Below, in pieces: positions 1,093 through 1,168 of a stretch of 1,168 nucleotides of DNA. The stretch is from NCBI RefSeq assembly GCF_003334765.1, contig NZ_QOWT01000084.1; one strand, written 5' to 3'. The notes beneath the pieces are model-generated. The model saw only the letters and a list, made by a program, of their open reading frames with translations, did no database searches and was not told where the DNA came from. This stretch comes from Escherichia coli (GTDB lineage Bacteria; Pseudomonadota; Gammaproteobacteria; Enterobacterales; Enterobacteriaceae). Position numbers and translations under genes: made by a program. Positions within the stretch are counted from its first letter, which is position 1. Each line of letters starts with the position of its first letter.

Positions 1093-1115
1093 GGTGATGC
1101 TGCCAACTTACTGAT
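1093..1115 (+). repeat. IS1 left terminal inverted repeat (IRL, about 23 bp)
   Basis: GGTGATGCTGCCAACTTACTGAT at 1093-1115, the recognised IS1 terminal inverted repeat. The partner IRR would lie about 0.75 kb downstream, outside the window. Confidence 0.85.
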
Positions 1116-1127
1116 TTAGTGTATGAT
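1099..1127 (+). promoter_or_regulatory. Putative IS1 insA promoter, partly within IRL
   Basis: Candidate -10 hexamer TATGAT at 1122-1127; a -35 element spaced 16-18 bp upstream would fall at about 1098-1105, inside IRL. Established knowledge is that the insA promoter overlaps IRL and is repressed by InsA binding the inverted repeat. The exact hexamer assignment here is my inference. Confidence 0.45.
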
Positions 1128-1147
1128 GGTGTTTTTGAGGTGCTCCA

Positions 1148-1168
1148 GTGGCTTCTGTTTCTATCAGC
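1148..1168 (+). CDS. insA: IS1 InsA (transposition inhibitor / transcriptional repressor), N-terminal 7 codons only; 3'-partial
   Basis: GTG at 1148-1150 followed by GCT TCT GTT TCT ATC AGC gives M-A-S-V-S-I-S, the InsA N-terminus as I recall it. A Shine-Dalgarno-like GAGG sits at 1137-1140, about 7 nt upstream. An in-frame TGA at 1136-1138 closes the frame upstream, so GTG is the first possible start. Confidence 0.7.

Follow-up and report, generated by a model that had tools for sequence, protein, structure and literature searches.

IS1 in the gal region is the classic case of an IS-associated deletion. Copies of IS1 also bound resistance determinants, as in Tn9 and the Tn2670 r-determinant of NR1/R100, and nearly precise excision by slippage between short direct repeats is known for Tn10 and Tn5. 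IS1 inserts preferentially into AT-rich intergenic DNA and, as a high-copy repeat, often breaks or mis-joins short-read assemblies. Missing target duplications are usually ascribed to adjacent deletion or to IS-IS recombination (PMC11708052, which reviews and quantifies such deletions). Among described genomic islands, the locus studied here is the integrase-proximal end of the intP4.5-type GI-pheV (PMC11537424), whose size is 110 kb in 55989 and ~87 kb in O104:H4; the integrase gene is named intP4 in that paper. GI-2 of O104:H4, located "by pheV", is the same island and bears a T6SS, pic and antigen 43 (PMC3551546). The word IS1 is absent from the main text of both papers, and their excerpted passages mention neither a missing duplication, nor a ManD islet, nor a scar.

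The window analyzed here is a stretch of 1,168 nt from Escherichia coli (NCBI RefSeq assembly GCF_003334765.1, contig NZ_QOWT01000084.1) that carries the 3′ part of an integrase gene (int), a spacer and the left end of an IS1 Table 1. The whole window is 100% identical in the O104:H4 outbreak strains, in EAEC 042, in ETEC E24377A and in other genomes, and these contain the complete IS1. A sequence-only reading of the window had placed the end of an IS1 357 bp 3′ of the stop codon of a P4-family integrase gene, after a terminator and AT-rich DNA, with the IRL facing int and insA co-directional with int. All of this was borne out, as was its expectation that such an integrase lies beside a tRNA gene.

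Table 1. Features of the window and of the O104:H4 locus L002 that extends it
Feature	Position	Strand	Remarks
P4-type tyrosine integrase gene (int), 3′ 732 nt + stop	window 1..735	+	frame 1, crosses left window edge; codons 177-420 (244 last codons) of the 420-aa protein WP_001218809.1; stop codon 733-735
Full int CDS	L002 14473-15735 (window -527..735)		
Terminator-like hairpin AAAATCCGGGC-AATA-GCCCGGATTTT	window 734..765		terminator scan: 14 pairs, 6 GC; T-runs on either side
AT-rich non-coding spacer	window 766..1092		327 bp, GC 23-40%, no ORF >40 aa
Nine bases left of IS1, TTGGGAACA	window 1084..1092		expected duplication; right side without repeat
IS1 left end	window 1093..1168	+	opens with GGTGATGCTGCCAACTTACTGAT; IRL 1093-1115; insA start GTG at 1148; window stops within insA
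Promoter-like site	window 1100-1127	+	
Complete IS1	L002 16093-16860		768 bp
A6C frameshift motif TTAAAAAACTCAGG	L002 ~16397-16410		
C-run of yfjJ	L002 ~16950		7 C
48-aa "replication initiation protein" CDS	L002 17355-17501		
RNAI (RF00106), full length	L002 17536-17641	+	Rfam, 59.9 bits (gathering score 47); ~680 bp right of IS1
isrK Hfq-binding sRNA	L002 18504-18583	-	Rfam, 56.8 bits (threshold 50)
Defense block (PADLOC)	L002 18719-29482		

The integrase has the three-domain architecture of P4-type (intP4) integrases, with an N-terminal arm-binding domain (DUF4102/Arm-DNA-bind_3), a central domain and a C-terminal tyrosine-recombinase catalytic domain (Pfam Arm-DNA-bind_3, Phage_int_M and Phage_integrase; E-values 1.9e-29, 2.4e-27 and 5e-17). 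NCBIfam PRK09692 scores it at 251 bits, under its 434-bit cut-off, and the translated ORF shows the H-x-x-R motif (HGFRA) and the tyrosine of the catalytic region (RAAYIH). The gene directly adjoins a tRNA gene used as attachment site, as island integrases of the intP4 type do: 197 bp separate the end of the tRNA-Phe gene from the start of int, this tRNA gene being pheV in O104:H4, E24377A, 55989 and UMNK88 and pheU in 042. The terminator-like hairpin overlaps the int stop codon and is the final segment shared with other integrase alleles; homology to int plus terminator in ~4,100 other genomes stops between nt 732 and 786. The possibility that the spacer encodes a structured RNA was discarded: the Rfam hits at 709-803 (BSnc120, Leu_leader, STnc430 and others) are all well under gathering scores and look like generic matches to a hairpin with a T-run, not like a real RNA gene. 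An exact scan of one genome per species with a single 28-nt pattern gave no match to the spacer outside E. coli.

The element itself shows the length, terminal repeats and frameshift signal of the IS1 family. Its 23-bp terminal inverted repeats are identical at 18 of 23 positions and it carries the A6C motif of the insA/insB′ -1 frameshift; the RefSeq label, on the same strand as int, is "IS1A family transposase, programmed frameshift". We take the promoter-like site of its left end to be the known IRL promoter of insA. This copy is nearly identical to canonical IS1, since queries containing it match 5,100-5,188 of 5,426 complete E. coli genomes and reach at least 99% identity in thousands of records. 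The full window matches 78,449 places in 5,188 of these genomes but window 1-1092 alone only 6,240 places, so that most of the places are owed to the IS1 part.

The direct target duplication that simple transposition would leave around IS1, of 9 bp or of 8-11 bp, is absent: in 042 (L001), O104:H4 (L002) and E24377A (L003), the element is flanked by TTGGGAACA on the left and by CCCTCTCTG on the right. Furthermore, the two flanks are not contiguous without IS1, except in genomes with a scar that bears IS1-derived bases (see below). The flanks are not those of a simple insertion, and the 9-bp duplication for which the sequence-only reading had suggested looking is not there. The two other checks that it had suggested were equally informative. 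Extension to the right reaches the IRR and then a yfjJ gene from its codon 51, a right flank that does not continue the locus of the left flank; a search with the spacer in IS1-free relatives recovers a ManD-family module 3′ of nt 1092. Its proposal that the downstream content had been interrupted, deleted or rearranged at IS1 is thus supported by the lost module, the truncated yfjJ and the absence of duplication.

The flanks were traced separately through the 5,426 complete E. coli genomes. On the left side, a sensitive search detected the AT-rich segment 770-1092 in 51 of them only, among which CH4784 (pheU) and Rb-50 (pheV) are the only relatives devoid of both IS1 and scar. Compared with the window, CH4784 shows 717/735 identical positions in int, 48/48 in the terminator and 301/310 in the spacer (707/735, 48/48 and 300/310 for Rb-50). 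With ~2.5-3% divergence, these left parents are sisters and not direct ancestors of the window. In both, homology to the window stops exactly at nt 1092; beyond this point come a terminator hairpin and then, at 40 bp, the 3′ end of a convergent ManD-family dehydratase gene, followed by genes encoding an SDR, an MFS transporter and a GntR regulator. According to NCBIfam, the first gene belongs to the D-mannonate/D-galactonate dehydratase family and the second is nearest to gluconate 5-dehydrogenase, both under the curated cut-offs. The spacer is native to the islet of int, where it separates, in uninterrupted relatives, the convergent 3′ ends of int and of the ManD-family gene. In DLI.5a (L011, 5184-6346), an ISKpn26 (IS5 family) interrupts the spacer at about window nt 987; int of this strain is not beside a tRNA gene but is preceded by genes encoding DUF6387, HTH and H-NS-like proteins.

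The islet shared by CH4784 and Rb-50 is a discrete block of 7.1 kb that runs from the tRNA gene to just past the module, the two genomes diverging thereafter; no att-like repeat was found at its right end with up to 4 errors permitted. The four-gene module is present in eight of the 5,426 genomes, i.e. in the chromosomes of CH4784 and Rb-50 and, at ~86% identity, in six plasmids. The plasmid version (for example NZ_CP142681.1, 3049-8738) is carried by large plasmids and includes an extra idnD gene. Its presence on such plasmids indicates that the catabolic module is itself mobile. A search for the module in the 5,426 genomes did not reveal any copy relocated elsewhere in those that bear the IS1. 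Downstream of the islet, CH4784 carries a truncated second integrase gene, which was examined as possible kin of the window int and shows no similarity to it at the DNA level. More broadly, region 7183-47501 of its locus (L012) contains integrase fragments between leoABC/tia, Type I R-M and grp microcompartment modules, a pattern that fits a serial, tandem accretion of islands at pheU. Rb-50 was also considered as a tandem ancestor and rejected, the DNA past its ManD module being unrelated to the yfjJ-SNF2 block described below.

On the right side, the DNA that follows IS1 is, in other genomes, the interior of a gene of the "YagK/YfjJ / inovirus Gp2-type" (yfjJ). The match with distant intact copies begins at nt 151 of the 567-nt gene. 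Two genomes, CFSAN004176 and A24, match the O104:H4 locus from 16861, the first base past the IRR, over ~13 kb at 98.8-99.8% identity; yfjJ is intact in CFSAN004176 and places the breakpoint between codons 50 and 51. The shared stretch comprises yfjJ, a remnant of an RNAI/ColE1 origin, and genes encoding a DUF2931 protein, an SNF2 protein, an AAA ATPase, an S8 peptidase, a methyltransferase and a helicase. In CFSAN004176 and A24, yfjJ is preceded by YagK′, two zinc-ribbon genes, a Gp2-family gene and hha, none of which adjoins int in the lineage of the window. The copy of A24 lies in an island adjoining yjh, sgc and fim genes, a position that we take, by K-12 gene order, to be the leuX neighborhood and thus a different chromosomal site. 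A run of C within yfjJ counts eight residues in the intact gene of CFSAN004176, ten in A24 and seven in every form with IS1 or scar, while distant intact homologues carry CCCACCCC at this place. The ten-C run frameshifts yfjJ in A24, where it is annotated as a DUF3296 fragment (comparison of the equivalent loci L023/L024); likewise, the seven-C run implies an additional frameshift in the yfjJ remnant of the IS1 and scar forms.

Further right, PADLOC detects a DrmD-like SNF2 helicase (3e-201), IetA (4e-105), IetS (E=0), a Type III methyltransferase and a Type III restriction enzyme. The SNF2 and methyltransferase genes are each annotated as two pieces in 042 (L001), which suggests frameshifts in this strain. 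Between yfjJ and this block, the full-length RNAI hit indicates that the chromosomal island contains a remnant of a ColE1-type plasmid origin. A 48-aa "replication initiation protein" is annotated just upstream of it, in ColE1-origin-like DNA common, at 75-97% identity, to many small plasmids; this annotation is probably spurious. The isrK hit lies between the DUF2931 and SNF2 genes. We assume that the "putative DNA helicase" of the island description excerpted from PMC11537424 may be the SNF2 gene or the DEAD-box gene found here.

The left and right junctions of IS1 were detected in exactly the same 42 of the 5,426 genomes. In addition, copies of int plus spacer with at least 99% identity were found in 49 genomes, all of which carry either the joint or the scar. 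The coincidence of the two junction sets and the 49 of 49 close int copies with joint or scar argue that the event occurred once and was then inherited, or transferred with the island; its presence in 49 genomes also indicates that it is old and shared. Over 17 kb (L002 14152-31168), the island of 042, located at pheU (dsbD/dicD side), and that of O104:H4, located at pheV (yqgA side), are 99.9% identical, and the island also occupies pheV (yqgA side) in E24377A and 55989. The fused island therefore reached both tRNA-Phe sites after the event, and its occupation of either site (pheU in 042, pheV in O104:H4) lends indirect support to excision and integration of the island by int. The uninterrupted ManD islet is likewise found at both sites (pheU in CH4784, pheV in Rb-50). 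Strain 214-4 has a single match to IS1-containing queries in its chromosome record, at this very site; as no second chromosomal IS1 leaves a place for a reciprocal product, this fits a loss and not an inversion.

The two flanks are joined without IS1 in seven of the 5,426 genomes (55989, UMNK88, H3, ETEC1749, HSP425, UPEC69 and OZ547038). The junction, ...GGGAACA-GG-TGATG-GCT..., was read directly and is identical in 55989, UMNK88, ETEC1749 and two metagenome contigs; H3, HSP425, UPEC69 and OZ547038 have the same span and identity statistics as the genomes read directly. It corresponds to a deletion of 773 bp between two TGATG pentamers, one at nt 3-7 of the IRL and the other 8-12 nt past the IRR, which left the GG of IS1. 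These genomes, which could be mistaken for an "empty site", retain GGTGATG (nt 1-7 of IS1) and lack CCCTCTC, seven genuine yfjJ nucleotides that are found in the IS1 form and in the intact genes. The IS1-free form thus derives from the form with IS1 and is a deletion scar.

Other strains have gained DNA at this place. In MLI121, the two junctions lie ~37 kb apart and enclose a ~36-kb region between two direct copies, IS1A (left) and IS1B (right) (L014, 2367-39500), with mer, fragments of Tn3 and TnAs3, ISEcp1-blaCTX-M-15, blaTEM-1, tet(A), a class 1 integron (dfrA5-qacEdelta1-sul1) and a catA remnant. The junctions of MLI114 have the same spacing, which would likewise place ~36 kb between direct IS1 copies there, and BEC1-S17-ESBL-09 carries a 2.6-kb remnant at IS1 (L015, 1878-4441). 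Acquisition by homologous recombination would most simply account for the IS1-bounded resistance DNA of these three strains, the resident IS1 appearing to serve as its docking site.

We favor, with a probability of about 0.85, a reading in which IS1 is a recombination joint between two unrelated island modules and not a simple insertion. Homology to each of the parental sequences ends exactly at an intact IS1 and no duplication surrounds the element, which together identify an IS-associated deletion or recombination joint. IS1 would mark the place where a sugar-acid module was lost, yfjJ was truncated and a defense block was joined to int. In this scenario, int and its 357-bp 3′ spacer would have been part of a small tRNA-Phe islet, whose native cargo would have been the gene of the ManD/galactonate-dehydratase family and the SDR, MFS and GntR genes. 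IS1 would have arrived 40 bp beyond the 3′ end of the dehydratase gene. An IS1-associated event would then have removed everything from the end of IS1 to codon 50 of the YagK/YfjJ (inovirus Gp2-like) gene of a CP4-like island module, either by intramolecular transposition (adjacent deletion) or by homologous recombination with a second, directly oriented IS1. This would have yielded the succession of int, spacer, IS1, truncated yfjJ, RNAI/ColE1-origin remnant, DUF2931 gene, defense block (DrmD-like SNF2, IetA/IetS, Type III Mod/Res) and the rest of a large island. Genome comparison shows where both breakpoints fall at single-base resolution, that IS1 lacks a duplication, that the catabolic module was lost and that yfjJ was truncated. 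We infer from it the order of the steps, the former tandem of both parents at one tRNA-Phe site, the IS1 end that moved and the size of the loss.

The predicted intermediates would contain the strings ...GAGTCATTACC + YTGGGAACA + GGAGACAGACCCGG on the ManD side and, for the 5′ end of yfjJ, ...GGCCATTCCCTCTCTG + GGTGATGCTGCC. No simple IS1 insertion with a 9-bp duplication was found at either site in the 5,426 complete genomes, where the junction counts coincide, or in metagenome contigs; a metagenome scan for the IRR followed by 6-12 nt and then by the ManD-side sequence gave no match, and no tandem of both parents was found in complete genomes or metagenomes. As the right parent of A24 is nearly identical and lies in a different chromosomal region, the joint could also stem from an exchange between islands or replicons rather than from a deletion in cis. 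Transposase-driven deletion, in-cis IS1-IS1 recombination and inter-island exchange are the candidate routes to the joint.

Among these routes, a purely homologous one deserves separate weighing: an IS1 copy of the spacer and another located in yfjJ would have recombined without any transposase-driven deletion, giving a deletion if both were on the same molecule and a swap of cargo if they were on different islands or replicons. These genomes are rich in IS1 (median of 10-11 matching places per genome having any match), the same IS1 and a second one bound the resistance region of MLI121, MLI114 and BEC1, and the right-hand module is present in other islands. However, no genome shows either insertion alone and flanked by its duplication, nor two IS1 copies framing the ManD module as a precursor would, and we rate this route at somewhat below even odds. 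It is a sub-case of the joint between two modules that differs in mechanism alone, adjacent deletion and IS1-IS1 recombination yielding the same sequence product.

Three other readings depart from the joint itself. The left flank is AT-rich non-coding DNA, as a neutral insertion of IS1 into intergenic DNA would have it, without loss of any neighbor and with a duplication since decayed by point mutation; the two 9-bp flanks nevertheless lack meaningful similarity, the right one begins in the middle of a gene, and both run into unrelated sequences in IS1-free relatives, so that we consider this reading refuted and its probability very small. The same low credit goes to the proposal that the joined form without IS1, as in 55989 and UMNK88, is ancestral and received IS1 later. 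In its favor, a single identical sequence occurs in seven genomes of different lineages and in two metagenome contigs, but this sequence contains the first 7 nt of IS1 and lacks the genuine CCCTCTC of yfjJ, and a later insertion would have left a duplication where none exists; it is likewise refuted. Finally, a repeat such as IS1 invites the suspicion that contigs were mis-joined across it, a possibility that becomes negligible given that identical junctions occur in 42 complete genomes assembled independently in many laboratories and in metagenome contigs, and that the scar derivative confirms the physical linkage of both flanks.

Since every int allele with at least 99% identity carries the joint or the scar, a broader scenario can be put forward, although we regard it as rather unlikely. 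A large virulence and defense island would have received, through the IS1 event, the intact int/attachment module of a small catabolic islet, and the whole intP4.5 GI-pheV lineage, which later spread to both tRNA-Phe sites across several phylogroups and pathotypes, would descend from this one fusion. If true, IS-mediated deletion would be a means of returning a working integrase to a decayed island.

The net change at the joint is the loss of a sugar-acid catabolic module and the placing of a defense block next to int, and genomes of today still preserve both parental arrangements. The locus offers a worked example in which a missing duplication, combined with a base-exact loss of homology on each side, suffices to call an IS deletion/fusion joint. 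For EAEC, ETEC and O104:H4, it accounts for the difference between the integrase-proximal end of the pheV/pheU island and that of its closest relatives. The history of the joint also explains a 773-bp difference between 55989 and the O104:H4 outbreak clone, and the use of this site by a CTX-M-15 multiresistance region as an entry point in some strains.

The element, the class of mechanism and the island were all already known, textbooks already describe ISs at the deletion or fusion joints of mosaic islands, and our results leave the understanding of IS1 and of genomic islands unaltered. As in the IS-associated adjacent and IS-IS deletions of PMC11708052, an intact IS lies at the breakpoint, no duplication is present and DNA is lost on one side relative to relatives. 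Unlike these, the event described here is natural and fixed and was deduced by comparison, no tandem ancestor that would give the size of the deleted interval having been found, and it fuses modules of two types of islands. The intP4.5 GI-pheV of 55989, O104:H4, E24377A and UMNK88 (PMC11537424) agrees with our locus in strains, in tRNA-Phe site and in having a P4-type integrase beside the tRNA gene; 042 differs from the described GI-pheV by carrying the same island at pheU. The ~36-kb region located between two direct IS1 copies exactly at this site in MLI121 and MLI114 resembles Tn9 and Tn2670; in contrast to these, it is a later and lineage-specific gain at a resident IS1, lies outside the window and is not the event that made the joint. 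Lastly, the loss of IS1 by a 773-bp deletion between two TGATG in seven genomes recalls the nearly precise excision of Tn10 and Tn5 but, having no 9-bp duplication to use, it made use of a 5-bp microhomology present by chance and took 7 nt of the flanking yfjJ with it.
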